64,000 bases of DNA from a candidate division NPL-UPA2 bacterium Unc8 (GCA_003574845.1 NDHY01000004.1:12723-76722), one strand, 5' to 3'; positions 6,426 through 23,711 are shown, counted from the stretch's first letter. The notes: generated from the sequence alone by a model not told the origin. Numbers and translations are program-made.

Positions 6426-6454
6426 ATTTTATATTACCAATCAAAATCGAACAC

Positions 6455-6483
6455 TTGACTTTTTTCCAGGATGGTTTTATAAT
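6455..6483 (+). promoter_or_regulatory. Consensus sigma70-like promoter: TTGACT, 17-nt spacer, TATAAT
   Basis: Hexamers read at 6455-6460 and 6478-6483, about 30 bp outside the right IS end and about 135 bp upstream of the MFS gene. Confidence 0.4.
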
Positions 6484-6618
6484 GAGGCTAAGCCGAGGTG
6501 CTAAGGAGTCACCATAAACCGGAGTGGTCAAAACTTTTTTGGAAAAACTAAACTGTTACGCTGGCAGAAATTTGCGTCACAGTGCAGTAGGTTATATAAG
6601 GAATATAAGGAGCAGAAG

Positions 6619-7902
6619 ATGAACAAAAGAGATAATTTGGGGTTATTCAGGCAATTAGCTTACAGCTCCGGGTATATGGGCTTAGCGCTTACCAGTGAGC
6701 TTATAGGCATGTGGTTAATTTTCTTCTATGCGGCGCGGGAAGAAATGGTCTTTGTGCCTGTTCTGCTTATGGGCGGTATCGTTTTTTTCGGCAGGGTTAT
6801 GGATGCTGTTAGCAGTCCTGTTATAGGATATTTTAGCGATAGATCAAGAAGCCGCTTTGGCAGGAGAATCCCGTTTATTGCCATAGGAACGCTGTTTTTA
6901 GTTGTAACCTTAATTCTTATTTTTCACCCGCCTGTTCCTGCTGAATCGGTAATTAATGCCATCTATTTAATAGTGGTATTAGGGCTTTTTTGGATTTTCT
7001 TCAGTGCTGTAGCTACGCCTCATCATGCTCTTCTCCCAGAGCTTGTTTCTACAGGTCGCGAACGGATAAACCTGGCAAAGTATGTAGGTATTTTTGGCGT
7101 TCTGGGTCTTTTTATTGCTTTTGCGGGCTCAGGTTATCTGATAGATCATCATGGCTTTGGATTAATGGCTATTGTTATGGGGGCTATTGTTTTTGTCAGT
7201 TTATATATCCTGGTGATATCTATTAAAGAGAGTCCTTGGTCCAGCGCAAAAGAAGTGGACTTATCATTTATTGCAGCAATGAAGCATTGTTTTATGAACA
7301 AACCGTTTCTTTATTATGTCTTTGCCTTTACTCTCATGATGATGGGGCTTAGTCTTCTTGCGGCTGCCGTTCCTTTTATAGTTACGGTATTGATGGGAGC
7401 AGGAGAGGAATGGGCAGGATATGCAATGGGGATGATGATGGTGGTGGCACTCTTGTCTTTTCCAATGATTAATTATCTCGCAAAGAAATTTGGCAAGAAA
7501 ATTGTTTTTGCTGGTTCCATCTTATTCTTCAGCGTTTTTGCGAGCTTACTTGGCACTATTGGAATGTTACCGATATCGCCCTTTTACCATGGATTATTTC
7601 TTATCGTCATCATGGGGGCCCCGGTTGCCAGTGCTTTGATGCTGCCTTTTGCAATAATTGCCGATGTAATTGACCATGATGAGACGATAACTGGATTTAG
7701 GAGAGAAGCATGTTATTTTGGGGTGCAAGCGTTAATATGGAAGTCAGGAGCAGGTATTTCCGCTTTAATTCTAACTCTGTTGCTGCATCATTTTGGCAAA
7801 ACCGCAGCAGAGCCACTCGGGATTATACTGGCCGGGCCGGCGGCAGGGCTCATACCTCTTATTGGTTTTTTCGTGTTCCTCAAATACCCATTTGAGAAAT
7901 GA
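6619..7902 (+). CDS. MFS transporter, glycoside-pentoside-hexuronide (GPH) cation symporter family
   Basis: 12 predicted TM helices and the GPH signature DRSRSRFGRRIPF after TM2. Confidence 0.8.
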   Translation: MNKRDNLGLFRQLAYSSGYMGLALTSELIGMWLIFFYAAREEMVFVPVLLMGGIVFFGRVMDAVSSPVIGYFSDRSRSRFGRRIPFIAIGTLFLVVTLILIFHPPVPAESVINAIYLIVVLGLFWIFFSAVATPHHALLPELVSTGRERINLAKYVGIFGVLGLFIAFAGSGYLIDHHGFGLMAIVMGAIVFVSLYILVISIKESPWSSAKEVDLSFIAAMKHCFMNKPFLYYVFAFTLMMMGLSLLAAAVPFIVTVLMGAGEEWAGYAMGMMMVVALLSFPMINYLAKKFGKKIVFAGSILFFSVFASLLGTIGMLPISPFYHGLFLIVIMGAPVASALMLPFAIIADVIDHDETITGFRREACYFGVQALIWKSGAGISALILTLLLHHFGKTAAEPLGIILAGPAAGLIPLIGFFVFLKYPFEK

Positions 7903-8116
7903 ACAACGGTTCAAGCCTATTGATGCCACAAGCCCACTAAATGTTTACTATAAGTTTGTCATGTTATTACAAACACTGCCGATAAGTAAAGATAAAAGGG
8001 TTCAGGATTCAGGGGTCAGCATTTTCGGATCGTCGGTAAAATAGTTTTCTGAAAGGCATAAACTTTTAACTTGCACTTTTGACTTTTAACTTTTGAATTA
8101 GTTCTTAAATACGTAA

Positions 8117-9331
8117 ATGAATAAGGAAAAACAGCAAATTCTCAAGGAAAAGTTAGGCCTTCTTCCTCTATCTGTTTCCAAGATAGAGGGAACACCCCGT
8201 ATCTGGGTAAATGCAGTATCAGTAGGGGAGGTTGTCGCCGCCGGCTCAATCGTCAAATTGCTAAGAGAGACTTATCCTTCTGCCTCTATTATCCTTTCTA
8301 CGGGAACAGAAACGGGTCGGAAAACGGCAGAGCAAACTATTAAAGAAGTAGATGGCTACATCTACTTTCCACTTGATTTCCCCTGGGTTGTCCGGCGCGT
8401 TTTAAGAATTCTCCGCCCTCATCTTTTTATTACTATAGAGACAGAAATCTGGCCAAATTTTTTAAGCATCGCCAGAAAAATGGGAATTAAAACGATGCTT
8501 GCAAATGGGAGAATCTCTGCAAGGTCATTCAATCGCTACCGACGCACGCGCTTTCTCTGGAAAAAGGTGCTTGGCAACTTTGATGCAATGAGTATGATTT
8601 CAAAGATAGACGCCGAAAGAATTAAATCAATAGGGGCAGAGCCAGAGAAAGTATTTATAAGTGGTAACTCAAAGTATGATACTTTGATTTCTCGGGCAAA
8701 TCCGGGATTCAAAGCAGAAATAAGAAAGCTTTTACAAATAGAGCCTTATGAGGCAGTCTTTCTTGCTGCCAGCACTCACGATGGAGAGGAAAAGATTATC
8801 ATTAAAGCATATAAAAATTTGCTTAAGGAGTTTCCACATCTGATTTTTATTATTGCCCCCAGACATATTAAAAGAGTGGCATCGGTTGAGAAGGCACTCC
8901 GCAGCGAAGGACTTTCTGACTTTATTCATCGTAGCAGCCTGCAGCATACCCGGAGAAAATCTCCAATAATTATTCTGGATGTAATTGGAGAACTTTTTTA
9001 TGTTTATAGCCTGGGAACGATTATTTTCTGTGGAGGAAGTCTGGTTAAAAAAGGTGGTCAAAACATACTTGAGCCTGCTTGCTGGGGAAAGGTTGTTTTT
9101 TATGGTCCTTCAATGGAGGACTTTCTTGTAGAGAGAGAGCTTTTGGGAGGGGCTGGAGCAGGGATAGAGGTCAAGGGAGCAGCTTCCCTTGTAAGAGAGG
9201 CGATGGTGCTCCTCAATAACCCGGAAGAACGAAGGCAACGCGGAGAAAAAGGAAGAGAAGCTATCCAAAAAATGGAAGATGCCGCTAAAAAAAATGTGAG
9301 ACTTGCTCAAAAGCTCCTGAAAGACTTTTGA
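8117..9331 (+). CDS. waaA: 3-deoxy-D-manno-octulosonic acid (Kdo) transferase
   Basis: N-terminal WVNAVSVGEVVAAGSIVKLL...STGTETG and the C-terminal glycosyltransferase fold of KdtA/WaaA. Confidence 0.85.
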   Translation: MNKEKQQILKEKLGLLPLSVSKIEGTPRIWVNAVSVGEVVAAGSIVKLLRETYPSASIILSTGTETGRKTAEQTIKEVDGYIYFPLDFPWVVRRVLRILRPHLFITIETEIWPNFLSIARKMGIKTMLANGRISARSFNRYRRTRFLWKKVLGNFDAMSMISKIDAERIKSIGAEPEKVFISGNSKYDTLISRANPGFKAEIRKLLQIEPYEAVFLAASTHDGEEKIIIKAYKNLLKEFPHLIFIIAPRHIKRVASVEKALRSEGLSDFIHRSSLQHTRRKSPIIILDVIGELFYVYSLGTIIFCGGSLVKKGGQNILEPACWGKVVFYGPSMEDFLVERELLGGAGAGIEVKGAASLVREAMVLLNNPEERRQRGEKGREAIQKMEDAAKKNVRLAQKLLKDF

Positions 9332-9406
9332 CAACGACTTCTTTTCTATGATAGGCTACTCCTGAAAATCAGGAATCGGAGTGGGATTGAGCCCCAGAAT
9401 CTTGAA

Positions 9407-10909
9407 ATGAATAATCAAAAGCAACAAATACTGCGGACAATCAAGGGACTGAGCTCGGAAATGAGAGTCACTTCAGAGGATGTCTCTATTATTCTTGCTG
9501 CCGGGCATGGAAAGAGAATTAAGTCCGAGATTCCCAAGATGCTTCACAAGATATGGAACATTCCCACTATCTGCCGAGTAGTTGATACAGTTGGTGATGT
9601 GCTGGGCAACAGCAGGATAGTGGTAGTGGGAATAAAGGGTGATGAGGTTGCAGGGCAAATCGGGAAGAGAGATGGCATAACATTTGCCTACCAGGAAGAA
9701 CAGAAAGGAACGGGGCACGCCTTACAAATAGCCCTGAATACTTTTGGAGGCAAAGAATACAATGGAAACATCTATGTCTTTCCAGGAGATATGGGACTGA
9801 TAACAACAGAGATAGTCAGAAAATTTAAAGAAGAGTTTGAACGCTCTCATCCGGATATGTTAGTTCTGACCGGCATCTATGAAGAAAAAATAGAAAACAA
9901 TTACTATGGTCGGGTATTGCGAGTTCCTGAAAAGGACCGCACAGGAAATTCAAGTGGTAGTAACCACGGATTAATTATTGAAATAATAGAATACAAAGAC
10001 ATACTGGCTCTGGATAGTGATTATACAACGAGATTTAATGGAAGAGAATACTGCTTCACCAGCTCCGCTCTTCTGAACATAGGAGAATTTAACAGTGGGG
10101 TTTATGCCTTCAGAGGCAAATTGGTAAAGAAGTATATAACGGAGATAACTAAAAAGAACGTTCAGGGAGAATTTTACATAACGGAGCTTATCAAAATATT
10201 CAATCGCCACCAGCTTTCGGTTGGAGCATTAAAGATGGCAGACCACACCGCACTCCTCGCTTTCAACAACAAGTCCGCTCTTAGAGATATGGAGGGAATT
10301 GCCCGGAGTCGAGTATATAACAAGATAGGAAATATCATCACTATTGAGAACAAAGAAGATTTTTTTCTTGCTGACACAGTAGTAGAAAGCATCCTGACTC
10401 TGGACAAAGAAAAAGGGCCACTTGACATTGTCATTGAGAAAGGAGTTTACCTCTACGACGGAGTAGAGCTGAACAAAGGAATACACATTAAGAAAAATAG
10501 TGTTCTCAACGGAAATATTAAGCTCGGGGAAGGAGTAATCATTTGCGAAAATGTTTCCTTGAGCACTTATCCGGAACAAGTGATGAAAATAGGGGACCAC
10601 ACGGAAATACTCAAAGGCAATATCATCAAAGGGAATACTCACATTGGAAGGGATTGCCGTATTGAATCATCCGTTAACATAACCGGCGGCGATGAATACC
10701 CAACAAGAATTGGCGATAATGTTACCATTAAGGGAACAAGCTATGTCTTTGGCTCAATCATTGAGAATGACCAGTGGATAGAACACTCGATCATTAAGAA
10801 GAAGTATATCAGAAAAGTAATTAGTGATGGCTCTGTTCAGCAAATAAAACATTATCTGCCTCCCCCGGAGGGAATTTCTTCCATCAGTAACCTGCCTTAC
10901 TCCTCATAA
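9407..10909 (+). CDS. GlmU-like sugar-1-phosphate nucleotidyltransferase with C-terminal left-handed beta-helix acyltransferase domain
   Basis: ILAAGHGKRIK...PKMLHKI, QEEQKGTGHAL and GEFYITELIK are homologous to the GlmU uridyltransferase. C-terminal hexapeptide repeats follow. 500 aa. Confidence 0.65.
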   Translation: MNNQKQQILRTIKGLSSEMRVTSEDVSIILAAGHGKRIKSEIPKMLHKIWNIPTICRVVDTVGDVLGNSRIVVVGIKGDEVAGQIGKRDGITFAYQEEQKGTGHALQIALNTFGGKEYNGNIYVFPGDMGLITTEIVRKFKEEFERSHPDMLVLTGIYEEKIENNYYGRVLRVPEKDRTGNSSGSNHGLIIEIIEYKDILALDSDYTTRFNGREYCFTSSALLNIGEFNSGVYAFRGKLVKKYITEITKKNVQGEFYITELIKIFNRHQLSVGALKMADHTALLAFNNKSALRDMEGIARSRVYNKIGNIITIENKEDFFLADTVVESILTLDKEKGPLDIVIEKGVYLYDGVELNKGIHIKKNSVLNGNIKLGEGVIICENVSLSTYPEQVMKIGDHTEILKGNIIKGNTHIGRDCRIESSVNITGGDEYPTRIGDNVTIKGTSYVFGSIIENDQWIEHSIIKKKYIRKVISDGSVQQIKHYLPPPEGISSISNLPYSS

Positions 10910-10920
10910 TAAGGAAAAAT

Positions 10921-11691
10921 ATGAAGCAGATAAAGATTATCCCCTGCCTTGATGTCAAGGATGGAAGAGTAGTTAAAGGGGTAAAGTTTGAAAATCTTAA
11001 GGATGCCCGAGACCCGGTAGAAGCAGCAGCTACCTATTGCCGCGAGGGTGCTGATGAACTTGTCTTCCTTGATATCTTCGCCACAGTGGAGAATAGAAAG
11101 ACTAGATTGGAGTGGGTGAGAAAGGTTGTTGATGTAGTTACTATTCCCTTTGCCGTGGGCGGTGGCATAGGTAACATTGAGGATATGAAGCTTTTGCTTG
11201 ACCTTGGCGTCAATAAGGTCTCTATAAACACGGCCGCGGTCAAGAACCCTGAGCTTATAAGAAGAGCATCTAAGGAGTTTGGTAAGAACCGGCTGGTGGT
11301 GGCTATCGATGGCAAGAAGAATCAATTGGGCAGTGGCTTTCCCCGACTTGAAGTGGTGGTTAAGAGTGGCAATGAAACTACGAGCATAGAAATTGTTGAC
11401 TGGGCAAAGAGGGTAGAAGAATTAGGCGCGGGAGAGATTTTACTCACCAGCAAGGATGCCGATGGCACCAAAGAAGGATATGATTTAGAAATGACCAGGG
11501 CAGTAGCCGAAGCGGTTCGCATTCCAGTTACTGCTTCAGGCGGCGCTGGCAAATTAGAGCACCTTTATGAGGCTGTTGTAATAGGTAAAGCATCAGCAGT
11601 TTTAGCTGCTTCAATCTTCCACTTCAGGGAGATTTCAATCAAAGAGGCAAAAAAATATTTGAAAAGTAAGGGTATATCGGTTTACGATTAA
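10921..11691 (+). CDS. hisF: Imidazole glycerol phosphate synthase cyclase subunit HisF (or WbuZ-like HisF paralog)
   Basis: N-terminal KIIPCLDVKDGRVVKG and the (beta/alpha)8 HisF signature. No hisH or hisA is adjacent. Confidence 0.8.
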   Translation: MKQIKIIPCLDVKDGRVVKGVKFENLKDARDPVEAAATYCREGADELVFLDIFATVENRKTRLEWVRKVVDVVTIPFAVGGGIGNIEDMKLLLDLGVNKVSINTAAVKNPELIRRASKEFGKNRLVVAIDGKKNQLGSGFPRLEVVVKSGNETTSIEIVDWAKRVEELGAGEILLTSKDADGTKEGYDLEMTRAVAEAVRIPVTASGGAGKLEHLYEAVVIGKASAVLAASIFHFREISIKEAKKYLKSKGISVYD

Positions 11692-11716
11692 GTATATTTA
11701 ATCGAAAGGTAAGATT

Positions 11717-12982
11717 ATGCAGAAGAAAAAGCTGAATCCCTTCAAGATCGCTCAGGCCCAATTGGATGAGGCAGCCAAAAAGTTAGGTTTAACTCCTCAT
11801 ATACATCAACTTTTAAGAAAGCCTATGAGGGAATACCATGTGACTATCCCGGTGAAGATGGATAGTGGCAAGATTAAGAGATTCAAAGGCTTCAGGGTCC
11901 AATACAATGATGCCCGGGGACCATGTAAAGGCGGAATAAGATACCACCCTGATGAGACCATTGATACAGTGAGAGCATTGGCTGCGTGGATGACATGGAA
12001 GACCGCCCTTTTAAATCTTCCTTTTGGTGGAGGAAAAGGTGGGGTAATCTGTAATCCAAAGGAGATGTCTTCTGGAGAATTAGAGAGACTTAGCAGGGGT
12101 TACATAAGGATGATATTTAAATACATCGGTCCCAAGGTTGATATTCCTGCCCCTGATGTCTATACTACACCTCAGATAATGGCCTGGATGATGGATGAAT
12201 ATAGTAAACTTATAGGTTATTATTGTCCTGGTGTAATTACTGGCAAACCTGTAGAAGTGGGAGGTTCTCTGGGTAGAGATGATGCTACTGCCAGAGGTGG
12301 GGTGTATACGGTAAGGGAGGCAGCCAGGCATTTGAAGCTCGATACTAAAGGGGCTACAGTAGCGGTTCAGGGATATGGAAATGCTGGATTGAATGCTGCT
12401 ATCCTGAGCCAGGAAATTTTTGGCTGTAAGATTGTTGCTGTGTCTGATACAAAAGGTGGAATCTATGACCCTAATGGTTTTGATCCTAAGGCGGTAGTAG
12501 AGCATAAGAGAAAGGTAGGTTCAGTTATTAATTTCCCAGGCACAGAGTTTATATCAAATGAGAATCTCCTGGAACTCAATGTTGATATCTTATGGCCGGC
12601 GGCGTTGGAGAATGTCATCACAAAAGAGAATGCCCCTCGGATAAAGGCAAAGATTATAGCAGAGGCCGCCAATGGTCCCACAACACCTGATGCTGACGGA
12701 ATTCTTTATAAAAACGGTGTATTTGTGATTCCTGATTTTCTCTGCAACGCAGGGGGTGTTACTGTTTCTTATTTTGAATGGGTCCAGAATATTACAGGGC
12801 TCTACTGGGAATTGGAAGAGATTCACCGGAGGCTTGATGAGAGGATGACCAGAGCCCTTCACAATACTTTAAATATGTCCCTTGAGCATAAGGTCAATAT
12901 GAGAGTGGCAGCCCATATGATAGCAGTAGAGAGAGTAGCCAGGGCCATGGAGCTCAGAGGATGGAGGAAAAAGATTAAGTGA
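11717..12982 (+). CDS. gdhA: NAD(P)-specific glutamate dehydrogenase
   Basis: Glu/Leu/Phe/Val dehydrogenase signature LPFGGGKGG with the catalytic Lys region; 421 aa. Confidence 0.9.
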   Translation: MQKKKLNPFKIAQAQLDEAAKKLGLTPHIHQLLRKPMREYHVTIPVKMDSGKIKRFKGFRVQYNDARGPCKGGIRYHPDETIDTVRALAAWMTWKTALLNLPFGGGKGGVICNPKEMSSGELERLSRGYIRMIFKYIGPKVDIPAPDVYTTPQIMAWMMDEYSKLIGYYCPGVITGKPVEVGGSLGRDDATARGGVYTVREAARHLKLDTKGATVAVQGYGNAGLNAAILSQEIFGCKIVAVSDTKGGIYDPNGFDPKAVVEHKRKVGSVINFPGTEFISNENLLELNVDILWPAALENVITKENAPRIKAKIIAEAANGPTTPDADGILYKNGVFVIPDFLCNAGGVTVSYFEWVQNITGLYWELEEIHRRLDERMTRALHNTLNMSLEHKVNMRVAAHMIAVERVARAMELRGWRKKIK

Positions 12983-13401
12983 AACAGCCCCACGACATAG
13001 TTAGTAAGTTAAGCGAATTAGGCTATCGGCTGACACCGCAGCGGATGATGATTTTGTCGGCTATTGAAAATAGCGATGACCATATTAGTGCCGAGGAAAT
13101 CTACGCCCAGGTGACGGTTAAATATCCTAATGTTAACATCTCAACCGTCTATCGCACCCTGGAACTATTAAAACGACTTGGGCTGACAACCGAGACGGAC
13201 CTCGGGGGAGGTAGAGTTAGATATCATCCCGCAGCGAAAGGGCATCATCATCACCTCGTTTGCCAGCAATGTGGAGCTATAATCGCCCTTGATGAGTCGC
13301 TGATGTCCTCTCTCAAGAGCGCTTTGCTCCGAGAATATAAATTTAGCGCCGACCTGAGACACCTGGCTATTTTTGGTCGCTGTGTAAATTGCGGTAAATA
13401 A
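12979..13401 (+). CDS. Fur-family metalloregulator (Fur/Zur/Nur-like)
   Basis: GTG start overlaps the gdhA stop. Winged-helix LTPQRMMILSAIE, His-rich HPAAKGHHHHLVCQQCG and C-terminal CxxC are present. Confidence 0.8.
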   Translation: MKQPHDIVSKLSELGYRLTPQRMMILSAIENSDDHISAEEIYAQVTVKYPNVNISTVYRTLELLKRLGLTTETDLGGGRVRYHPAAKGHHHHLVCQQCGAIIALDESLMSSLKSALLREYKFSADLRHLAIFGRCVNCGK

Positions 13402-13440
13402 TTTTTTTTATTGTGTCACTGCATATTGTTGCGATAAAGA

Positions 13441-13469
13441 TTGCATTATTTTAAAAAGTGTTGTATAAT
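13441..13469 (+). promoter_or_regulatory. Sigma70-like promoter (TTGCAT, 17 nt, extended -10 TGTATAAT) upstream of the cbi locus
   Basis: Hexamers read directly. A 15-bp palindrome TTGCAAATAATTGCA at 13521-13536 lies downstream as a candidate operator. Confidence 0.35.
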
Positions 13470-13520
13470 TATTCTAAAATAGTAAAGAAGCATTAGGCTC
13501 TTAATTTTTTTGCTTTGTTA

Positions 13521-13536
13521 TTGCAAATAATTGCAG
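13521..13536. promoter_or_regulatory. Palindromic candidate operator TTGCAAATAATTGCA between the Fur-family gene and the cbi operon
   Basis: A near-perfect inverted repeat sits downstream of the candidate promoter. Confidence 0.25.
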
Positions 13537-13550
13537 ATGCATTTAATCGC

Positions 13551-13650
13551 TAAAAGCAGAAGCCAGAATCCAGAAGCCAGAATTCAGAATAGAAGAAGTA
13601 TAGGCTTCCAGCAACTTGCTGACTTCTGACTCCTGAATTGGTGGCGTTGT
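13551..13650. repeat. CAGAAK-unit tandem repeats arranged as an imperfect palindrome
   Basis: gcagaagccagaatccagaagccagaattcagaa ... ttctgacttctgactcctgaattgg. The same unit family recurs at 25499-25600. Confidence 0.7.
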
Positions 13651-13694
13651 GCAACCAGTTGTAATTATATCCTTATTAAGAAAGGGAGGAAAAA

Positions 13695-14447
13695 ATGAAA
13701 GTGGTATTGAAGGTTTTCTTGACGTTAGTTTTCCTGACGTTAGTTTTTCTGGCTACGGCTACGGTTGAGCTCTTGGGGTGTCCACCTCCCGCAGAGCCAA
13801 AGGTAGATGTAGAAGCGGTCAGAAGTGATATAGATGGAATTAAAAGGGATATGGAAGCTTTTAAAAAAGCTGTGAATGTCATCCATCCGCAATCCGATGT
13901 AATTGTCTCTGAGGAAACCCTCCCTCAGGAGATAAGGGATATGGCAGAGACGATTCACCTGAGCAGCCACGGGCTTAAATACCTTATGCCTTATATGGAA
14001 AAGGTTATAGAGGAGCTTGACAGGTATAAAGAAAACCCCCAGACGCATAAGAAGGAAATCCTTTATGCAGCTGGGGGACTTGAAGCCCTAAGAAAGGCTT
14101 CTATAAAAATAATGCAGGAAAAAAGGTTCATCTCCCTTATGGAGCTTCCCTATCCTGAGAAAGCACCGCATAAAATAGCACATGTGCTTCTGGAAAAAGA
14201 AGAGATCAGGGCAATTGAGGAGACCAAAAAGGCAGCTGGGGATATTCATATCGCTATGCATGGGCTTGAGGATGCTTTAACCTCTATGAAGCTTAATCTG
14301 AAGAAGATTTTCGAAGCTTTTGTCGGTGAGGGTATGGCGAGGGCGGGCAGCACCGGTTATACCCGGCTCCAGTTGGCAGTGATGGCGGGGTGTGTCATCT
14401 GGGGATTTATCGGCACCGCTCTGTTCTTCAATAGGAGGGGCGGCTGA
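13695..14447 (+). CDS. His-rich predicted lipoprotein with C-terminal TM anchor, translationally coupled to cbiM (candidate metal-delivery component)
   Basis: Signal peptide with lipobox LLGC; a 15-bp tandem duplication inside the signal peptide; many His in helical repeats; a C-terminal hydrophobic helix; the stop overlaps the cbiM ATG (TGATG). Confidence 0.55.
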   Translation: MKVVLKVFLTLVFLTLVFLATATVELLGCPPPAEPKVDVEAVRSDIDGIKRDMEAFKKAVNVIHPQSDVIVSEETLPQEIRDMAETIHLSSHGLKYLMPYMEKVIEELDRYKENPQTHKKEILYAAGGLEALRKASIKIMQEKRFISLMELPYPEKAPHKIAHVLLEKEEIRAIEETKKAAGDIHIAMHGLEDALTSMKLNLKKIFEAFVGEGMARAGSTGYTRLQLAVMAGCVIWGFIGTALFFNRRGG

Positions 14448-15166
14448 TGCACATTTCAGATGGCGTGTTATCGCCTCAAGTCTGGATATCTGGATATGTG
14501 ATTACCGTGGCATTAACCGCTTATGTCTTAGCCAGGAAAACGGACACCAGCGAACTGCCGAAACTCTCGATAATTACCGCGGCTCTCTTTGTGGCTTCAT
14601 TAATCCATATACCGATAGGTCCAACAAGCGTTCATCTGGTATTGACCGGCTTAGCCGGAATAACCCTCGGACTGCTTGCTTTTCCGGCTGTTCTCGTCGC
14701 CTTAATCCTGCAAGCCCTTCTTTTCCAGCACGGAGGTATAACTACCATAGGGATAAACACCATTAATCTGGGACTTCCGGCACTGGCAGTCTATGGGCTT
14801 TTTCTCCTCGGAACCAGGACTAATATCAGAGGAAAACATGGAATATTCGGTGGTTTAGCCGGTGGAATGGCTGTAGCTCTGGGCATACTGCTTCTCTCCT
14901 TGAGTTTGCTCGTTACCGGTGAGCACCTTAAAGATGTGATTCCGTTCGTCGTTGTAGCGCATCTTCCGTTAATAGCAATTGAGGCTATAGTTGTGGGTGC
15001 TTTTGCTGGATTTGTGAGGAGAGTTAGTCCACAGGTATTAAAAAATGGTAGAGTATCCTCAAATCGACAGATATGCCGGACTTACCTCCCCGATCCACCG
15101 CTGGGACCCGCGGGCCAAGCTGGTCGCTATCCTTGGTCTGATCTTCTCGGTGGTGCTCATCACTGA
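14447..15166 (+). CDS. cbiM: ECF transporter substrate-specific component CbiM/NikM (Co/Ni)
   Basis: N-terminal MHISDG (Met1-His2 metal-ligand motif) and multiple TM helices. The C-terminal ~35 aa overlap cbiQ in a different frame. Confidence 0.85.
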   Translation: MHISDGVLSPQVWISGYVITVALTAYVLARKTDTSELPKLSIITAALFVASLIHIPIGPTSVHLVLTGLAGITLGLLAFPAVLVALILQALLFQHGGITTIGINTINLGLPALAVYGLFLLGTRTNIRGKHGIFGGLAGGMAVALGILLLSLSLLVTGEHLKDVIPFVVVAHLPLIAIEAIVVGAFAGFVRRVSPQVLKNGRVSSNRQICRTYLPDPPLGPAGQAGRYPWSDLLGGAHH

Positions 15167-15800
15167 CTTGATGATGGCTATGGTTGGGTTAGCTGTCGCT
15201 CTCTTTCTGGTTTTTATATCCAGGATACCTTTTGGCTTTGTGCTAAAGCACTTAGCACGAGTTAGCATATTTATCTTCCCTCTCTGTGTGCTCATTCTGT
15301 TTACCTATCATCAAGGAGATGAGATAGCAAGGTTTTACTTCCTGACTGTTACCTCAGGTGGAATTGAGCATGCCTGCTTGATAGCAGTCAGGGCACTTGC
15401 CGCAGTTATTCTTATATTCCCCCTGATAGGCACTATGAGGTTTGATGTTGCGATAAAGGCTTTAGGAAAGCTTAAAGTCCCTAACAAGCTGGTTCAAATG
15501 CTAATTTTTACCTATAGATACATTTTTGTCTTTATTGAAGAAGTTCAAAGAATGTTCAGAGCACTTACTTCAAGAGGATTTACCGGAGGAATGAATGGAC
15601 GCACGCTGAGGGCAACGGGCAGGTTGATAGGGATGCTGTTGGTTAGAACCCTTGAAAGAGCGGAGAGGGTTTACAATGCTATGGTTTCCCGAGGATACGA
15701 AGGAAATCTCGGGACTTTGGTTGAGTTCAAAATTGGAGGAGGAGATATTCTTAAAGCTGCCATTTTAATAGCGATAGCAATCGCATTAAATGTGTTTTGA
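15045..15800 (+). CDS. cbiQ: ECF transporter transmembrane T component CbiQ
   Basis: N-terminal RWDPRAKLVAILGLIFSVVL and the CbiQ/EcfT fold; it overlaps cbiM by 120 bp. Confidence 0.8.
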   Translation: MVEYPQIDRYAGLTSPIHRWDPRAKLVAILGLIFSVVLITDLMMAMVGLAVALFLVFISRIPFGFVLKHLARVSIFIFPLCVLILFTYHQGDEIARFYFLTVTSGGIEHACLIAVRALAAVILIFPLIGTMRFDVAIKALGKLKVPNKLVQMLIFTYRYIFVFIEEVQRMFRALTSRGFTGGMNGRTLRATGRLIGMLLVRTLERAERVYNAMVSRGYEGNLGTLVEFKIGGGDILKAAILIAIAIALNVF

Positions 15801-16537
15801 GGGTTATTCAGATGAGTGAAAGAGCGATAAGTATTACAAATCTTAGCCATACCTATCCTGACGGAACACCCGGGCTGCGTGGAATTTCACTTGATATAAT
15901 TAGAGGAGAATCCGTTGGTGTAATAGGTCCGAATGGGGCAGGAAAAACTACACTTTTATTACATCTAAACGGCATTTTTATGAGCAAGAATGGAAATGTA
16001 GAGATATTAGGAAAGGAAATAAGAAAGGAGAATATAAAAGGGATAAGGAGAAGTGTCGGGCTTGTTTTTCAAGACCCGAATGACCAGCTTTTTATGCCCA
16101 CCGTCTTTGATGATGTTGCCTTTGGTCCGCTCAATATGGGTTATTCTGAGGCTGAGGTTCGGCAATGTGTAGCCAGGGCCCTGGATTGGGTGGGGATGAC
16201 TGGTTATGAGCCGCGCTCACCTCATCATCTTGGTGTTGGTGAGAAGAAACGGATTGCTATAGCTACCGTCCTGGCTATGACCCCGGAAATCCTGGTGATT
16301 GATGAGCCAACGGCAAATCTTGACCCGGGGAGTAAGTGGTCTTTAATTGAATTACTGAGAGGGTTGTCAATAACTAAAATAATTGCCACTCATGACCTGG
16401 AGTTGGTGCGAGTCCTGTGCCAGCGGACTATCGTTCTTGACAAAGGGAGAGTAATTACTGACGGCACTACTAAACATATTTTAGTTGATAAACCGCTGCT
16501 TTGTGCCCATGAACTGGCTCCACCAAATGCCACTTAG
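15797..16537 (+). CDS. cbiO: ECF transporter ATPase CbiO
   Basis: Walker A GPNGAGKTT, the ABC signature and Walker B ILVIDEPT. Confidence 0.85.
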   Translation: MRVIQMSERAISITNLSHTYPDGTPGLRGISLDIIRGESVGVIGPNGAGKTTLLLHLNGIFMSKNGNVEILGKEIRKENIKGIRRSVGLVFQDPNDQLFMPTVFDDVAFGPLNMGYSEAEVRQCVARALDWVGMTGYEPRSPHHLGVGEKKRIAIATVLAMTPEILVIDEPTANLDPGSKWSLIELLRGLSITKIIATHDLELVRVLCQRTIVLDKGRVITDGTTKHILVDKPLLCAHELAPPNAT

Positions 16538-16558
16538 ATTAGTCTTAGGGTCTGTAGC

Positions 16559-17437
16559 TCAAGCTATTTCCTCTTTGGTCCTGATTGATTTACTATTGCC
16601 GGCATTGAGCAGGACACAGGGAAGACCATCAACCGGGTGGAGATAGACACAGTCCTCAGCTCCATAGACCTCCTTGATATTGCGAGCAGTGATAACCTCC
16701 TTAGGTGTCCCCTCAGCATGAACTCGCCCGTTATTTATCAGGACTAATCGATCGCAGTATTGTGAGGCAAGGTTCAGGTCATGAAGGGCAGCCAAAACTG
16801 TTAGATTATTCTCCCGGCAAAGGTTCTTAATCAGGTCAAGGATTTCAATCTGACGGCCGATATCCAGATTTGCGGTCGGCTCATCCAGAAGAATCGCCTT
16901 TGGCTCTTGAGCCAGAACACGAGCAATGAGTAGACACTGTATTTCCCCACCGGAAAGTTCGCTCACTCTTCGCTCAGCAAGAGAGTGAGTTGCCGTCCTT
17001 TCCATAGCTTGCCAGGCGATAGTTAGTTCTCTGGGTCCTTCATACTGAAAAGGGCTGAGGTGGGGATTTCTGCCCATAAGCACTATCTCAAAGGCGGTAA
17101 AGGCGCTGGGCAGGAGAGGCATCTGAGGGACGACACCAAGCAAACGAGCCAAATCCTGCCTTGGTATCTCCCTTACATTTTTTCCATCCAGAAGTATTTT
17201 CCCTGAATGGGGAGAGATAATGCGACTTAAAGTCCGGATAATGGTCGACTTACCACAGCCATTTGGTCCGATAAGCCCTACCATCTCTCCCGGCCTCACC
17301 TGAAAGGTCATCTCTTTCAACACTACCTTACGACCATAGCCAAAGCAGACATCCTGCATTTCTATCTTAATCATTGGAGGGTCAGAAAAGTATTTTTCTC
17401 TTGCGCCGCAATAAGTAAAGGAAGAAGGGTGCTCCAC
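16559..17437 (-). CDS. ABC transporter ATP-binding protein (iron-siderophore/cobalamin FecE/BtuD type)
   Basis: GLIGPNGCGKST Walker A, LSGGE signature, ILLDEPT Walker B. Confidence 0.85.
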   Translation of the reverse strand: MEHPSSFTYCGAREKYFSDPPMIKIEMQDVCFGYGRKVVLKEMTFQVRPGEMVGLIGPNGCGKSTIIRTLSRIISPHSGKILLDGKNVREIPRQDLARLLGVVPQMPLLPSAFTAFEIVLMGRNPHLSPFQYEGPRELTIAWQAMERTATHSLAERRVSELSGGEIQCLLIARVLAQEPKAILLDEPTANLDIGRQIEILDLIKNLCRENNLTVLAALHDLNLASQYCDRLVLINNGRVHAEGTPKEVITARNIKEVYGAEDCVYLHPVDGLPCVLLNAGNSKSIRTKEEIA

Positions 17438-18449
17438 AGAGAGCAGTGATTACCCCTATCGGTATCTCGGTAGGAGCCAGAGCGGTGCGCGCGATTAGGT
17501 CGGTTAGGATTAGAAAGATGGCACCGGTGAGAACAGACAGGGGTAGTAGGAAACGGTGGTCAGCACCCCAAATTAGACGCACGGCATGAGGAATGATGAT
17601 GCCGACAAAGCCGATGATGCCGACAAAAGAGACGGCGGCAGCCGTAATTAAAGTGGCTGCGACCAGGAGAACGAGCTTGAGTCTTTCCACATTGATTCCT
17701 AACTGCTGAGCCTGCTCCTCGCCAAGCTGCATTATATTAAGTGGACGAGCATAAAGCAAGATGATGACTATCCCCACCACCACATAAGGCAGAACAATCT
17801 TTACCTCTGACCACTGGCTCAAGGAGAAACTGCCCATTAGCCAAAATATAATGCCGTGCATTTTCTCCCCGCTGAAAATGATGAGATAGGAAATGATTGA
17901 CCCTAAAAGCGCGCCTAAAGCCACACCGGCTAAAATAAGAGTAGTCACGGGCAGGGTTTTGCCTACCCGAGCCAAACCATAGACAATAGTAGTGCTAACC
18001 AGTGCCCCGGTGAAGGCAAGTAGGGGGATAATCCCGAAACCCATACCGTGCCAGGTGAACGGAAGTAAAAAGCCAATGACTGCCCCCAACGCTGCTCCTT
18101 GAGCGACACCGATGAGATAAGGGTCAGCCAGTGGGTTACGGAAGAGTCCCTGGTATGTAGCCCCGGCTATTGCCAGAGCAGCTCCGACCAATCCTGCCAG
18201 TAGTACCCGGGGAAGGCGAATATCAATAATAATTGTCTCCGCCGCTGCCGACCAGGCGGGGATGATATCTATAAGAGGCAGCCGGGAAAGCAATATCCCC
18301 CATATGGTGTTGAGAGGGATGTGGGTGCTTCCCACCGCCGTAGCTACAACCATTATCACTCCCAGGAGTAAGGCAAGCCCGGCTATGCCATATAGTCGGC
18401 TTCGCCACCGCAAGTGGTAGGCATGGGTAGCTCTGACCAGTGGTATCAT
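17382..18449 (-). CDS. FecCD-family ABC permease (BtuC/FepD-like)
   Basis: 355 aa, about 9-10 TM helices, the conserved FecCD Gly-rich region. Confidence 0.85.
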   Translation of the reverse strand: MIPLVRATHAYHLRWRSRLYGIAGLALLLGVIMVVATAVGSTHIPLNTIWGILLSRLPLIDIIPAWSAAAETIIIDIRLPRVLLAGLVGAALAIAGATYQGLFRNPLADPYLIGVAQGAALGAVIGFLLPFTWHGMGFGIIPLLAFTGALVSTTIVYGLARVGKTLPVTTLILAGVALGALLGSIISYLIIFSGEKMHGIIFWLMGSFSLSQWSEVKIVLPYVVVGIVIILLYARPLNIMQLGEEQAQQLGINVERLKLVLLVAATLITAAAVSFVGIIGFVGIIIPHAVRLIWGADHRFLLPLSVLTGAIFLILTDLIARTALAPTEIPIGVITALCGAPFFLYLLRRKRKILF

Positions 18450-18461
18450 TATAGTTCCTCT

Positions 18462-19373
18462 CTATTCACCGAAAAGTTCAGGGTGAATAAACTTTGTTAA
18501 CTCCTCCAGGGCATCAACCAGCCTCGGTCCAGGTCTATCAAATAGGTCCTCCTCAACCAGATATACCCTGTTTTCCCGGAACGCATCAGTAACCCCTAAC
18601 CCTAATCTGAGTTTATCCTTCACTCCGGCAGCGCGATGAGGGGCGATAATTAACTGAGGATTCCTGGCAATAACCGTTTCTAAATCAATACCTGCCCATT
18701 GAGTAAGGTCATAAGCAATGTTTTTTCCCCCGGCTTTGTTGATCAAATCATCAGCAAAGGTTCCTGAGCCAGCCACCAACAGCGGGTCGTGCCAGACTAT
18801 ATATAGAACCCGTGGTCTTTGCTCATCAGTCAGAGTCATGGTTTTCTCGGTTATGGCTCTAATCCGATCCTCCAGATCGGTAACCAGCCGGATAGCCTTC
18901 TCGCTCTTGCCGGTGATTTCCCCAACTAAGGTAATGTTGGATAGCACTTCATTTAGGGTCTTCGGCACCAGAGCAAAGACAGTTATATCAACTCTCTCCA
19001 GTGCTGGGATTCCTTTCCGTTCGTGAAGGGCGGCGGCCAGTACCAGGTCTGGCTCAAGAGCGACCACCCTCTCCAGGTCGAAGGGGAGCCAGCCACCTAC
19101 CTTTTCTATATCCAGTGCTGTCTCCGGATAATTACAAAATTCAGTAACCCCGACTACCTTATTCCCAAGACCTAAGGCAAAGAGGATTTCGGTATTACTC
19201 GGGGCAAGGGAAACAATCCTCTGCGGCACTTCTTCAATATCTACTGTTCTTCCCAGGTCATCAACAAAGACGCCAGGGACAGGCGGGGGAGGACAAACCG
19301 GGTAAACCGCAGCCGAGCCCGAAAATGCCACCATCAGCAAAGTTGGAATACACCACCGAATATAATGTTTCAT
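18462..19373 (-). CDS. Periplasmic substrate-binding protein (class III, BtuF/FepB-like)
   Basis: Signal peptide, 303 aa, positioned with the FecCD permease and ATPase. Confidence 0.75.
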   Translation of the reverse strand: MKHYIRWCIPTLLMVAFSGSAAVYPVCPPPPVPGVFVDDLGRTVDIEEVPQRIVSLAPSNTEILFALGLGNKVVGVTEFCNYPETALDIEKVGGWLPFDLERVVALEPDLVLAAALHERKGIPALERVDITVFALVPKTLNEVLSNITLVGEITGKSEKAIRLVTDLEDRIRAITEKTMTLTDEQRPRVLYIVWHDPLLVAGSGTFADDLINKAGGKNIAYDLTQWAGIDLETVIARNPQLIIAPHRAAGVKDKLRLGLGVTDAFRENRVYLVEEDLFDRPGPRLVDALEELTKFIHPELFGE

Positions 19374-19560
19374 TTAAAAATCTCCTTTATTGTTCTAAAT
19401 AAATCCTACCCCCTTACTCCGCGGAGGTTCAAGGATACAGCAATCCGAATCAAAAGTCCAAATAAATAATCAGCATTATTTTGACACGACCCCTTAAAAA
19501 ACTTAACATGTGACAGCAGAATGTAGTATAATCAGGAAATGACGTGCTTTGTTGTGATTA

Positions 19561-22014
19561 ATGTCGTTATGTATAGGTATTGATGAGGATATTATGATTA
19601 AGCTTGAAGAAAACCTTATTGCCACAACAGAACCTGAATGCAGCGAAAAGCAATGTATACAGGGAAAGGGTTACAGAATAACTGTATTGACTTCAGAATT
19701 ATTCAGAATAGAAGTATCAATTGAAAATAATTTTCTTGATAAGGCAACGCAAGTCGTATGGTTTAGAAACTTCGATAATCCAGAGTATACAGCTAAGGAG
19801 ATGAAAAATAATCTTCAAATAACCACCGATAAAGTTACGTTGTTTTTCGATACAAAATCATTAAAAGCAAAATATATTAAGTTTAATGATTCTAACAGGA
19901 AAATAAAGTGTAACAATAACTACAACTTAAAAGGTACAATAAGGACGTTAGATGTGTTTTATCTAAAGAAAAGGCTAAAAAATGGCATTATGTCATTAAA
20001 CGGTGTTTCCGTATATGACGATAGCAAATCGCTGATTCTTGATAATGACGGAATGATCAGTTCCAGAGAGGCTAAAAGCAATGATATATATATCTTTGCC
20101 TATGGAAATAATTTCCGCAAATGCCTGAAAAACTTTTTTAGACTTACAGGCAAAACCCCACTCATTCCTCGCTACGCCTTATCTAACTGGTGGAGCAGAT
20201 ATAAGGCTTACTCCCAGGAAGAATATATTGACTTGATGAAAAGATTTATCAAAGAAGATATTCCGATTACTGTTGCAGTAGTTGATATGGATTGGCACTG
20301 GGTAAATGTCAATGAGAAATTTGGCACCAACTACAGACGCGGGCGCCTCATCTTGCCTGGAGTCCTGTCTGTGGGCTGGACAGGTTATAGTTGGAATACG
20401 GATTTATTTCCTGATTATAAGGCGTTCCTAAAGTGGTTGCAAGAACACAATCTTAAAGTTACCTTAAATCTTCACCCTGTAGATGGGGTTAGGCCCTATG
20501 AAGATATGTATAAAGAAATGGCATTAGAGATGGGTATTGATCCAGGCAGCAAAGAAGATATTAAATTTGACATTACAGATCCAAAATTTATAAATGCGTA
20601 CTTCAAAATTTTACATCATCCATACGAAACAGAAGGCGTTGATTTTTGGTGGATAGACTGGCAACAAGGAGAGAAATCCAAAACCAAAGGCTTAGATCCT
20701 TTGTGGGCGCTAAATCACTATCATTTTCTGGATAACAGAAAAGAAGATAAAAGACCCCTTATACTGTCCCGGTATGCAGGTGCCGGAAGTCATCGTTATC
20801 CTATAGGCTTTAGTGGTGACACCGTAGTAAGCTGGGGCACATTAAAGTTCCAAATATATTTTACTGCTACTGCTACCAATATCGGTTATGCCTGGTGGAG
20901 CCATGATATAGGTGGTCATTGCCTTGGCATAAAGGATGATGAGCTCTATTTAAGGTGGGTGCAATATGGCGTGTTTTCTCCAATTCTGAGATTGCATTCT
21001 ACCAGCCACGACTTACAGGGCAAAGAACCCTGGAATTACAGCAAAGACGTTGAAGCATTCACTAAAGAGCAATTGAGATTGAGACACAGGCTGTTGCCTT
21101 ATATCTATTCAATGAACTATAGAACCTATAACGATAGCATTGCGCTGGTAGAGCCTATGTATTATGCTCATCCAGAAGACAAAAGAGCTTATTTGGCAAC
21201 CGAGCAGTATTCCTTTGGCTCTGAGTTTATTGTCTGTCCTATTATTAGAAAAATCAACAAAAGGCTGAAGATGGCATATTCGGATGTATGGTTACCTGAA
21301 GGTCGTTGGACAGACTTTTTTACCGCTCAGATTTATAAGGGCAACAAATGGGTCAGGATGTTCCGAGGCTTAAATACAATACCTGTGCTTGCCAAAGAAG
21401 GTGCTATTATACCTATATCAGATAATATTGGTAATGATTGCTCCAATCCTGAAAAGATGACCCTGCATATTTATCGTGGAAACTCATCTTTTGTGCTCTA
21501 TGAAGATAATGGTTATGATAATAAGTACATAGATGGCAAGTATGCCAAGACAACATTTAGCGTTGAAGAAAATAATGATATAATATTTAACATAAGTAAA
21601 GTAGAAGGTGTTAAGGAAGTAATACCTAAAAATCGACAGTATAAATTGTTATTTAAGGATATTGTTAGCGCTGAAAAAGTTGAAGTGAGAATTAATGACA
21701 AGATAATAGAGGAAATAAATTTTAATACAGATAATTGTCTATCAGTTGAACTTAAGAATATTGAGCCTGATGAGAATGTGCAGGTTATCATATCAGGTTA
21801 CAAAATAAAAGAGAACATTTCCTATAATGAGGCAATAATTGAAATACTTACAAAATACCAGGCTTCAAATATTCTTAAGATGTTGCAATATAAGATACTG
21901 CAATATACAAAATCTAAGGATATAGCAACTAAAGACAGGTACATTGAAAAAATTAAAAGACTTTGCGTTCTTCCAAAGGTTATAAGAGGAGCGGTAGAAG
22001 AATATTTAGATTAA
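19561..22014 (+). CDS. Glycoside hydrolase family 31-like (alpha-glucosidase/alpha-xylosidase family)
   Basis: PRYALSNWWSRYKAYSQEEYIDLMKRFIKEDIPITVAVVDMDWH and GVDFWWIDWQQGE resemble GH31 catalytic-domain motifs. The gene is visibly AT-rich compared with its neighbours. Confidence 0.6.
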   Translation: MSLCIGIDEDIMIKLEENLIATTEPECSEKQCIQGKGYRITVLTSELFRIEVSIENNFLDKATQVVWFRNFDNPEYTAKEMKNNLQITTDKVTLFFDTKSLKAKYIKFNDSNRKIKCNNNYNLKGTIRTLDVFYLKKRLKNGIMSLNGVSVYDDSKSLILDNDGMISSREAKSNDIYIFAYGNNFRKCLKNFFRLTGKTPLIPRYALSNWWSRYKAYSQEEYIDLMKRFIKEDIPITVAVVDMDWHWVNVNEKFGTNYRRGRLILPGVLSVGWTGYSWNTDLFPDYKAFLKWLQEHNLKVTLNLHPVDGVRPYEDMYKEMALEMGIDPGSKEDIKFDITDPKFINAYFKILHHPYETEGVDFWWIDWQQGEKSKTKGLDPLWALNHYHFLDNRKEDKRPLILSRYAGAGSHRYPIGFSGDTVVSWGTLKFQIYFTATATNIGYAWWSHDIGGHCLGIKDDELYLRWVQYGVFSPILRLHSTSHDLQGKEPWNYSKDVEAFTKEQLRLRHRLLPYIYSMNYRTYNDSIALVEPMYYAHPEDKRAYLATEQYSFGSEFIVCPIIRKINKRLKMAYSDVWLPEGRWTDFFTAQIYKGNKWVRMFRGLNTIPVLAKEGAIIPISDNIGNDCSNPEKMTLHIYRGNSSFVLYEDNGYDNKYIDGKYAKTTFSVEENNDIIFNISKVEGVKEVIPKNRQYKLLFKDIVSAEKVEVRINDKIIEEINFNTDNCLSVELKNIEPDENVQVIISGYKIKENISYNEAIIEILTKYQASNILKMLQYKILQYTKSKDIATKDRYIEKIKRLCVLPKVIRGAVEEYLD

Positions 22015-22029
22015 ATAAGACTTGACTTT

Positions 22030-23709: not shown

Positions 23710-23711
23710 AA

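Follow-up and report, generated by a model that had tools for sequence, protein, structure and literature searches.

The DNA analyzed here is a 64,000-nucleotide (nt) stretch, hereafter the window, from the candidate division NPL-UPA2 bacterium Unc8 (GCA_003574845.1, NDHY01000004.1:12723-76722), and our subject is a set of predicted nickel or cobalt uptake genes within it, above all the gene for a 250-amino-acid (aa) protein that directly precedes cbiM. An open reading frame (ORF) listing and direct reading gave the gene order fur-like, 293-nt spacer, 250-aa ORF, cbiM, cbiQ, and cbiO, all on the plus strand. The gene for the S component, cbiM or nikM (14447 to 15166), matched PF01891 (E = 3.8e-49) and NF004905 (190.8 versus a cutoff of 173), and its product begins with MHISDG, that is, with the N-terminal Met-His of the CbiM family. 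The T component gene, cbiQ (15045 to 15800), matched PF02361 and TIGR02454 (152.9 bits versus a cutoff of 111.8), and the ATPase gene, cbiO (15812 to 16537), matched PF00005. Gene callers and the Prokaryotic Genome Annotation Pipeline (PGAP) agree on 241 aa for CbiO; the ORF is also open from a TTG at 15797, a less likely start than the ATG at 15812. The best NCBIfam matches of CbiO were cobalt or energy-coupling factor (ECF) ATPase models, each under its curated cutoff (e.g., TIGR01166, 205.4 versus 211.8). Since cbiM, cbiQ, and cbiO are contiguous or overlapping, the T and A components share an operon with the S component. Judged by these family matches, the locus encodes a group I ECF importer for nickel or cobalt consisting of CbiM/NikM (S), CbiQ (T), and CbiO (A), the three proteins that an earlier reading of the sequence alone (the sequence-only reading) had already recognized here.

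That reading had also remarked on the absence of cbiN or nikN, and our searches agree. Across window positions ~6410 to 24447, no called gene matched a Pfam model for CbiN, NikN, or PDGLE, and no small CbiN-like ORF with two transmembrane (TM) segments was present elsewhere in the 64-kb window. Within the window, cbiM therefore has no two-TM N component beside it or fused to it, as in CbiMNQO and NikMNQO systems (CbiN, PF02553).

Immediately upstream of cbiM lies the 250-aa ORF (13695-14447), with a strong Shine-Dalgarno (SD) sequence, GGGAGG. Its TGA stop (14445-14447) overlaps the cbiM ATG (14447-14449), and AGGAGG lies 8 nt upstream. As read from the sequence, the protein opens with a lipoprotein signal peptide (residues 1 to 29; 13695 to 13781) that ends in the lipobox LLGC (Cys29), a Cys kept in bacterial relatives with clearer lipoboxes (LVGCGGG, LSGCGGG, and FIGCGKG). 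A helical-bundle ectodomain of ~180 aa follows (residues 34 to 209; 13794 to 14321) and then a linker, a single TM anchor, and an RRGG tail of the NikL type (residues 210 to 250 plus the stop; 14322 to 14447, with the TM segment at ~14367-14429). The protein has 9 His, including three HxxxH pairs, and its C-terminal TM helix (~residues 225 to 245) is followed by NRRGG; the lipobox, the histidines, and the C-terminal helix described in the sequence-only reading are thus all present. The ORF is continuous and was called in four assemblies, in addition to 245-aa variants from close strains. The core of the signal peptide is encoded by 2.6 copies of a 15-nt tandem repeat (GTTTTCCTGACGTTA; 13713-13751) that yields VFLTL repeats, and the 245-aa variants are one 15-nt unit short, so the length of the signal peptide is polymorphic.

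A NikL-type anchor at the C terminus

A word-indexed homology search with the 250-aa protein returned two full-length or ectodomain relatives, P0001 (97% identical) and P0002 (53%), and six proteins of ~145 aa (P0003 to P0008) that matched its last ~40 residues only, at 65 to 83% identity (P and L numbers designate comparison proteins and loci). Each of the six has a signal peptide and a beta-sandwich (weak CarboxypepD_reg/DUF4198 matches) and matched NF058648 weakly; two carry the Joint Genome Institute (JGI) label "nickel transport protein." Their loci read fur, ~800 nt, nikL-like, cbiM, cbiQ, and cbiO. By blastn, locus L005, whose operon is the nearest relative, aligned with the window at 78.7% identity from position 14323 (residue 210) through cbiO, and nothing upstream aligned. 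By tblastn, residues 210 to 250 corresponded to residues 104 to 144 of the L005 NikL-like protein (83% identity), with the junction in frame at the start of a conserved linker, GEGMA.AG.TGYT.LQL. The same method detected no trace in the window of a NikL beta-sandwich remnant or of an alternative ~280-aa K-like lipoprotein and no trace of the helical domain in L005.

To place this anchor, we scanned species-representative genomes for its motif, CV[IV]WGFIG, which occurred in 20 species or loci distributed over Chloroflexota, Bacillota, Fermentibacteria/Aegiribacteria, Spirochaetia, Desulfonatronospira, and Brachymonas (at least five named phyla or lineages) and unclassified metagenome-assembled genomes (MAGs). 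In all 20 loci, the carrier was a protein of ~145 to 210 aa that combines a signal peptide and a beta-sandwich and has xHG at its mature end. cbiM (MHIPDG) followed the anchor gene at −23 to +1 nt in the 18 loci with enough contig, most commonly at −1, as in the window; the TGATG overlap to which the sequence-only reading had drawn attention is real and has the commonest spacing of NikL-cbiM pairs. Because 20 of 20 anchors sit on beta-sandwich NikL-like proteins, the window anchor is an ortholog of the NikL anchor, with a different ectodomain in place of the original one. The 250-aa protein shares with NikL both this homologous C-terminal TM anchor and a position upstream of cbiM with coupled translation.

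These results overturn the earlier statement that a NikL- or NikK-type partner is absent, since the C-terminal 41 residues of the 250-aa protein are a NikL-type anchor. The anchor-type NikL-like proteins themselves matched NF058648 at E values of 1e-7 to 1e-10, under its cutoff. That model includes the beta-sandwich ectodomain, and the 250-aa protein gave no Pfam or NCBIfam match at E ≤ 1. The search against models of metal-subunit families that had been proposed for this protein thus returned nothing, and its kinship with NikL emerged from the homology search. All 20 anchor-type NikL-like proteins, encoded at L009-L028, along with three from operons of the L033 type (described below), have a His right after the predicted signal cleavage site (AHG or AHN), and the window chimera does not. 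By analogy with the Met-His of CbiM, this suggests that the post-cleavage His of NikL-like proteins may be an N-terminal metal ligand.

The chief rival to a working subunit holds that the gene is a pseudogene remnant, in which a helical-lipoprotein gene became joined to a decaying nikL and the anchor is an accidental read-through tail without a role; the helical protein would then act like its free relatives, or no accessory function would remain at all. PGAP on Unc8 treats the gene in this way. The 250-aa ORF is absent from that annotation, which lists only 27077-27169 (window 14355-14447, residues 221 to 250) as a pseudogene labeled "carboxypeptidase regulatory-like domain-containing protein." Free members of the helical family end without a TM anchor, and the NikL beta-sandwich is wholly gone together with its invariant xHG N terminus, as would be expected of a remnant. 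However, the in-frame junction falls exactly where the conserved linker starts, and the TM core is identical to that of L005 at 20 of 21 positions, with a ratio of nonsynonymous to synonymous changes (dN/dS) of 0.32 over the 41 anchor codons (0.17 for cbiM), although DNA identity over the flanking operon has fallen to 79%. Both the SD sequence and the TGATG overlap with cbiM are intact, and the fusion is kept in every strain-level assembly seen. Given the in-frame junction, the conserved anchor, and the intact coupling to cbiM, we consider a dead anchor unlikely and favor a functional chimera. Other MAG submissions list the full ORF as a hypothetical protein (MBT9146512.1, labeled Syntrophomonadaceae/Bacillota), and the gene is an annotation correction to the published PGAP annotation of Unc8, from which it is missing.

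The helical ectodomain family and its operons

The helical ectodomain had no Pfam-A or NCBIfam match at E ≤ 1, in libraries that presumably hold CbiN and PDGLE models beside DUF4198 and NF058648. DUF4198 (COG5266), which we take to be the classical NikK-type domain (the K1 subtype), did not match the helical domain. When an ectodomain profile was run exhaustively with HMMER against 1.84 billion cluster representatives, it returned only 19 proteins, comprising bacterial lipoproteins of ~215 aa and longer proteins that contain the domain once or twice, several of which end in a Pfam-confirmed PGF-CTERM archaeal sorting signal. Family members are named "hypothetical protein," or spuriously, in every source. 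In the alignments, H88, S90, and H92 are invariant; H64, H163, H185, and H189 are nearly so, as are several Met, Glu, and Asp positions. The motifs are H64, H88-x-S90-x-H92 (HxSxH), H159xxxH163, and H185xxxH189 (HxxxH).

An AlphaFold2 model of the ectodomain built from a 20-sequence alignment was confident (predicted local distance difference test score [pLDDT] of 95.2; predicted template modeling score of 0.88), superseding an earlier run with three sequences (pLDDT 57). The model has four long helices (residues 39 to 71, 78 to 111, 119 to 148, and 175 to 210) and a short capping helix (158 to 172). By their helix positions, H64, H88/H92, and H185/H189 lie 7 to 14 residues from the same end of the bundle, with H159/H163 in the cap; these positions in the model suggest that the conserved His form one cluster near that end. 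Neither Foldseek nor a profile search of PDB sequences gave a significant PDB match. An hhalign comparison of the N-terminal and C-terminal halves aligned the two HxxxH helices weakly (E = 0.004; probability, 9%), which is suggestive of an internal duplication.

We then asked where the domain is encoded. At L030, the gene for P0002, which has no anchor, is followed by a cbiM-like gene with a 4-nt overlap. At L029, a Fur-family gene immediately precedes the P0013 gene, which is followed after 12 nt by a cbiM-like start. P0027, P0033, and P0040 are encoded in K-M-L-Q-O operons (L033-L036), in the order helical lipoprotein, cbiM, NikL-like, cbiQ, and cbiO, with a NikL-like protein that matched NF058648 at E = 5e-20 and with CbiX/CbiC, CbiD, CbiZ, and CbiA as neighbors. 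A metagenome scan for the domain yielded 27 loci, one of which repeats the window fusion. In 16 of the other 26, many of them redundant, the domain lies beside cbi genes, mostly in the order cbiM, nikL, K, cbiQ, and cbiO; these M-L-K-Q-O operons contain PGF-CTERM archaeal versions. Locus by locus, the K-M-L-Q-O order also occurs at L041, and the order M-L-K-Q-O occurs at L043, L046-L053, and L058-L063. These two arrangements fit the nikKMLQO and nikMLKQO organizations. As expected of NikK, the family is exported (lipobox or signal peptide) and encoded inside nikM/L/Q/O operons. On this comparative evidence, the helical domain is a real, transporter-linked family that holds the NikK position elsewhere. 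Its fusion to the anchor was seen in this lineage only, among 20 anchor-bearing species and 19 domain representatives.

The 250-aa protein thus appears to be a chimera of two known roles, since it joins a NikL-type anchor to a domain that stands in the NikK position elsewhere, and by its sequence and gene context, it very probably serves the CbiM transporter as an extracytoplasmic accessory component. The sequence-only reading had proposed a new component of this kind in place of the usual partner. The proposal gains from the recurrence of the helical domain beside cbiM in bacterial and archaeal operons, but the protein is a chimera and not an unrelated replacement.

Some of the contexts point beyond nickel and cobalt. 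Three of the 27 metagenome loci, as well as L032 (an Altiarchaeota locus), have the helical domain beside feoB and a DtxR-type repressor. Archaeal PGF-CTERM proteins with the helical His domain adjoin feoA/feoB at L032, L054, L056, and L057 (one labeled Ca. Altiarchaeota), and L032 has, besides its DtxR-type repressor, a DUF2162, MotA/ExbB, and DUF2149 set. Such neighborhoods hint that the domain may also serve iron uptake in archaea. They likewise favor the idea that the domain has a general role in the envelope, as a metal buffer, chaperone, or sensor, possibly for iron; its genes would simply cluster with metal uptake genes, and it would deliver no nickel or cobalt to CbiM. In keeping with that idea, some members (among L031, L039-L045, and L054-L057) have no cbi gene in reach, and no specific fold match constrains function. 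On the other hand, several unrelated lineages encode the domain either between nikL and cbiQ, within M-L-K-Q-O operons, or right before cbiM, with a short or overlapping junction, and in the window it is covalently linked to a subunit anchor that always accompanies cbiM. A general domain of this sort therefore strikes us as rather unlikely.

It could also be argued that nothing here is new and that the protein is a very divergent form of a described NikK/NikL subtype (e.g., NikK2/K3, Zhang et al. 2009) in an ordinary nikKMLQO variant. NikK and NikL are indeed highly diverse, with several subtypes and shuffled orders that include nikMLKQO (PMC2667541, PMC545781), and the Unc8 paper already lists CbiOQML. 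However, the protein matched no Pfam-A or NCBIfam model at E ≤ 1, although these libraries hold DUF4198 and NF058648; family members are everywhere hypothetical or spuriously named; and only this lineage joins both parts. We regard this explanation as very unlikely and continue with a transporter-linked helical family, fused in Unc8 to a NikL anchor.

Other proteins in these operons also merit a record. At L033 (3443-3715), the helical K gene is separated from cbiM by a 90-aa His-rich helical ORF (HRLVH, HDACHE, and HLEHH) without a family match. Another unannotated family, of lipoproteins of ~270 to 290 aa (here K′), occupies a K-like slot in fur-K′-nikL-cbiM operons of Chloroflexota and Fermentibacteria (L014-L017, L022, L024, L025, and L028) and has the motifs LQF.ANGEDFVR and DPPYDPH and a C-terminal LGHTGEGHCHC. 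At L014, L022, L024, and L025, the K′ lipoprotein is preceded by a ~234-aa protein resembling an outer-membrane barrel. Neither the K′ lipoprotein nor the barrel-like protein matched Pfam or NCBIfam.

A Nur-like regulator and its candidate operator

The Fur-family regulator that the sequence-only reading had placed directly upstream is confirmed as a 140-aa, Nur-like protein (12979 to 13401; GTG start; PF01475, E = 3.9e-31). Its best PDB sequence match was 3EYY, the Nur protein of Streptomyces coelicolor (E = 6e-33; 116.7 bits versus 96 for the runner-up), and the two recognition helices (NISTVYRTLELL) are identical. The M-site residues His33, His88, and His90 of Nur correspond to H35, H90, and H92 of the regulator. 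KGHHHHLVC aligns to Nur H86-H90 and C93 and is an ordinary Fur-family metal-site motif, so this stretch is not the special poly-His tract for which it had been taken. At the Ni site, Nur His70, His72, and His126 correspond to E72, D74, and H128, and in the Fur homologs of L005 and L029, the first two of these residues are K/K and K/D. The GTG start overlaps the stop of gdhA (GTGA, 12979-12982). Because of this overlap, the regulator appears to be cotranscribed with glutamate dehydrogenase, and coupled to it in translation, rather than with the transporter operon. PGAP starts fur at M23 (118 aa; 13045-13401), a choice that removes a conserved N-terminal helix (LTPQR) whose alignment to Nur starts at residue 8.

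Between the regulator and the 250-aa ORF lies an imperfect, Nur-box-like 6-4-6 inverted repeat, TTGCAA and TTGCAG around ATAA (TTGCAAATAATTGCAG; 13521 to 13536), which was the sole match to the degenerate operator motif in the window. A second, weaker operator-like site (GTGCAACCAGTTGTAA; 13649 to 13664) has 10 of 12 half-site matches and is separated from the start codon by 31 nt. In 13 other loci retrieved, four of which represent a single organism, a Fur-like gene precedes nikL-cbiM or K-cbiM. The 6-4-6 motif occurred between the fur-like and transporter genes in 8 of 11 fur-linked loci, with 11 hits in all; 500 shuffles gave a mean of 0.47 and a maximum of 4. These operator-like sites read ATGCAACCAATTGCAA at L005 and L009, ATGCAACTAAGTGCAA at L029, CTGCAAACTGTTGCAA at L015, TTGCAAATATTTGCAA (a perfect palindrome) at L017, and TTGCGAnnATTCGCAA at L016, L022, and L024. 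The half-sites are those of the Nur box, and the spacing was 6-4-6 in every locus examined, versus 6-5-6 in the Nur box. In S. coelicolor, where the Nur box is tTGCaa-N5-ttGCAA, Nur binds a nikM promoter (PMC2691836).

The conservation of the palindrome across loci, together with Nur as the closest solved homolog, supports Fur-type regulation through this site, and the adjacent Nur-like regulator probably represses the operon via 13521-13536. The palindrome that the sequence-only reading had put forward as a regulatory site has thus gained weight. Of the nickel- or cobalt-responsive control proposed along with it, the Fur-type regulation is supported, and the metal specificity is weakened by the loss of two Nur Ni-site His. 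This regulator/operator pair, conserved over several phyla, could help to predict nickel and cobalt regulons in uncultured lineages.

The σ70-like promoter suggested earlier is present on the plus strand as TTGCAT-17-TATAAT (13441 to 13469) and is identical in L065, a 98.8%-identical strain contig. It is weak, however (its −35 matches the consensus at 3 of 6 positions); a consensus scan missed it, and such sites are expected by chance in an A+T-rich spacer. We considered a riboswitch in the 293-nt leader and rejected it, as the window, L005, and L006 gave no Rfam match at the gathering score and only chance-level matches at E ≤ 10. The leader folds no better than shuffled sequences (z = −0.91). 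It contains 2.4 copies of a 14-nt tandem repeat (CAGAAGCCAGAATC; 13557-13590) whose copy number varies between assemblies (L001 and L065).

Substrate, proposed mechanism, and relation to known systems

Contigs of The Cedars GPS1 metagenome, from hyperalkaline spring water, share 99.5% identity with the window. The coordinates of fur, cbiQ, and cbiO equal those of Contig_4 of the Unc8 MAG at an offset of +12722, and the ~240-aa cbiM is shared. The Unc8 paper names the transporter CbiOQML and reports transcripts of fur, the fragment, cbiM, cbiQ, and cbiO in two springs at a modest level; the RNA libraries of The Cedars metatranscriptome are GPS1 and BS5sc (PMC6305446). According to the Unc8 paper, Unc8 is an NPL-UPA2 acetogen with highly expressed carbon monoxide dehydrogenase/acetyl-coenzyme A synthase (CODH/ACS) and no known hydrogenase. 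Precorrin, cobyrinic acid, and cobaltochelatase genes are all missing from its gene table, which does list a btuB-like receptor. Given the reliance on CODH/ACS and the apparent lack of corrin-ring synthesis, nickel is the likelier substrate in Unc8. With a CODH/ACS lifestyle in hyperalkaline, metal-poor water, nickel acquisition should be limiting for this organism.

Downstream of the accessory gene, the window differs from sister assemblies in cbiM, which is ~240 aa (239-240) here versus 204 aa there. Where L001-L003 and L065 have a TGA stop codon (15059-15061), the window has TCA, which extends CbiM by 35 aa across the cbiQ start, and this change sits within a cluster of ~17 substitutions (15060-15152). 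Within the cluster, CbiQ Q6, T14, and R19 match the distant relative L005 exactly (G31 is S in L005), and the sister contigs differ. Because these residues side with L005 and not with the sister contigs, a recombinant strain or a mosaic polished consensus is suggested at 15060-15152. On the minus strand, a convergent ATP-binding cassette (ABC) importer (16559-19373) abuts cbiO; its ATPase, FecCD permease, and Peripla_BP_2 binding protein are BtuFCD/FepBDC-like, and by this resemblance, it could import corrinoids for a host apparently without corrin-ring synthesis.

Taken together, these data lead us to propose, with moderate confidence, that the locus encodes a cbiMQO importer whose accessory subunit is a chimera of a K-type domain and an L-type anchor, which captures metal and is under the control of the Nur-like regulator. 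The lipoprotein signal would export the helical bundle, and its conserved His would capture metal outside the cytoplasmic membrane. The NikL-type TM helix and basic tail probably pack against CbiM, so that the anchor would hold the capture domain over the N-terminal Met-His site of CbiM for hand-off, as CbiN, or NikK plus NikL, would do elsewhere. In related operons, the helical K-position protein and the anchored beta-sandwich NikL are encoded by two genes; a K-L-M-Q-O-type ancestor most likely underwent an in-frame deletion or recombination that joined the K domain to the L linker with loss of the beta-sandwich. The window CbiM is 83% identical to its counterpart in L009, which has an L-M-Q-O operon, versus 54 to 60% for operons with the helical K protein and 35 to 47% for the remaining anchor-bearing loci. 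The Nur-like protein would bind TTGCAA-N4-TTGCAG and repress the operon when metal, its presumed effector, is sufficient.

Several points weigh against this proposal. Free K-position proteins work without an anchor, other operons keep a NikL beta-sandwich with its N-terminal His, and the fusion may have lost a needed function. The dN/dS of the anchor comes from 41 codons, and PGAP recognizes only a pseudogene fragment. P0013, a cbiM-linked member of the helical family, lacks four of the seven conserved His, and the clustering of His is argued from helix positions in the model alone. As to the metal, the B12-synthesis neighbors of the bacterial K-M-L-Q-O loci argue for cobalt there, and the archaeal feoAB and DtxR-type neighbors mean that the domain may not be Ni/Co specific. 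The regulator has Glu and Asp at two of the three Nur Ni-site positions, and the operator-like site lies ~50 nt downstream of the best promoter-like site. Finally, the expression rank of cbiM in the Unc8 paper is low (851, versus 985 coding sequences reported for the MAG).

More broadly, and only tentatively, since we would give it somewhat less than an even chance, the helical His bundle may be an unrecognized extracytoplasmic metal-capture module for CbiM/NikM ECF transporters, and possibly for Feo, in bacteria and archaea, hard-wired to the S component via a NikL helix in NPL-UPA2. This hard wiring may be an adaptation to scavenging nickel at a pH above 11, where free metal is vanishingly scarce. 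The lack of an extracytoplasmic binding protein is usually part of the definition of ECF transporters; the helical module, if its role is as proposed, would in effect be one. We also know of mechanistic studies only for CbiN, and delivery of metal to the N-terminal site of CbiM/NikM is, as far as we are aware, the least understood step of Ni/Co ECF transport. If correctly interpreted, the fusion would amount to evidence from nature that K-type domains touch CbiM directly when they act. It argues that such a domain works at the docking site of the L anchor on CbiM and offers a simple experimental construct.

Among known systems, NikL (NF058648, the HI1622 family; "nickel transport protein" in KEGG-style naming) is closest to the window protein in its C-terminal linker, TM helix, and basic tail, which are homologous, and in having a gene directly upstream of cbiM/nikM with overlapping stop and start codons and an exported ectodomain tethered by a C-terminal TM helix. 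It differs in its CarboxypepD_reg-like beta-sandwich (xHG N terminus and GHG motif), in whose place the window protein has a 180-aa helical bundle; moreover, the window signal peptide is of the lipoprotein type, and the NikL model does not match. CbiN and NikN are likewise presumed to be membrane-tethered partners that load the N-terminal metal site of CbiM and are encoded beside cbiM, but they have two TM segments and a short loop, whereas the window protein has one TM segment, a lipid anchor, and a large ectodomain, with no PF02553 match. The regulator resembles Nur (3EYY), its closest solved homolog, in an identical recognition helix, retained M-site His, and TTGCAA half-sites, and Nur is known to control a nikM-type ECF operon; it differs at the Ni site, where His70 and His72 are replaced by Glu72 and Asp74 (His126 is kept), and in an operator spacing of 4 bp versus 5.

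NikK and NikL are exported accessory proteins of nikKMLQO and nikMLKQO systems, with several unrelated subtypes, described mainly from comparative genomics (PMC545781, PMC2667541, PMC2868824). Like NikK of NikKMLQO (Rodionov 2004; Zhang 2009), the helical family occupies the K slot, is exported, and is a proposed metal binder; unlike NikK, which is a separate protein, the window domain is covalently fused to the L anchor, and it has no DUF4198 similarity. The locus therefore belongs among the NikK/NikL-assisted ECF importers of nickel and cobalt, which are already known. What appears to be new is the chimera and a confidently foldable helical family with conserved His motifs and no Pfam or NCBIfam model, which takes the K slot in both bacteria and archaea.

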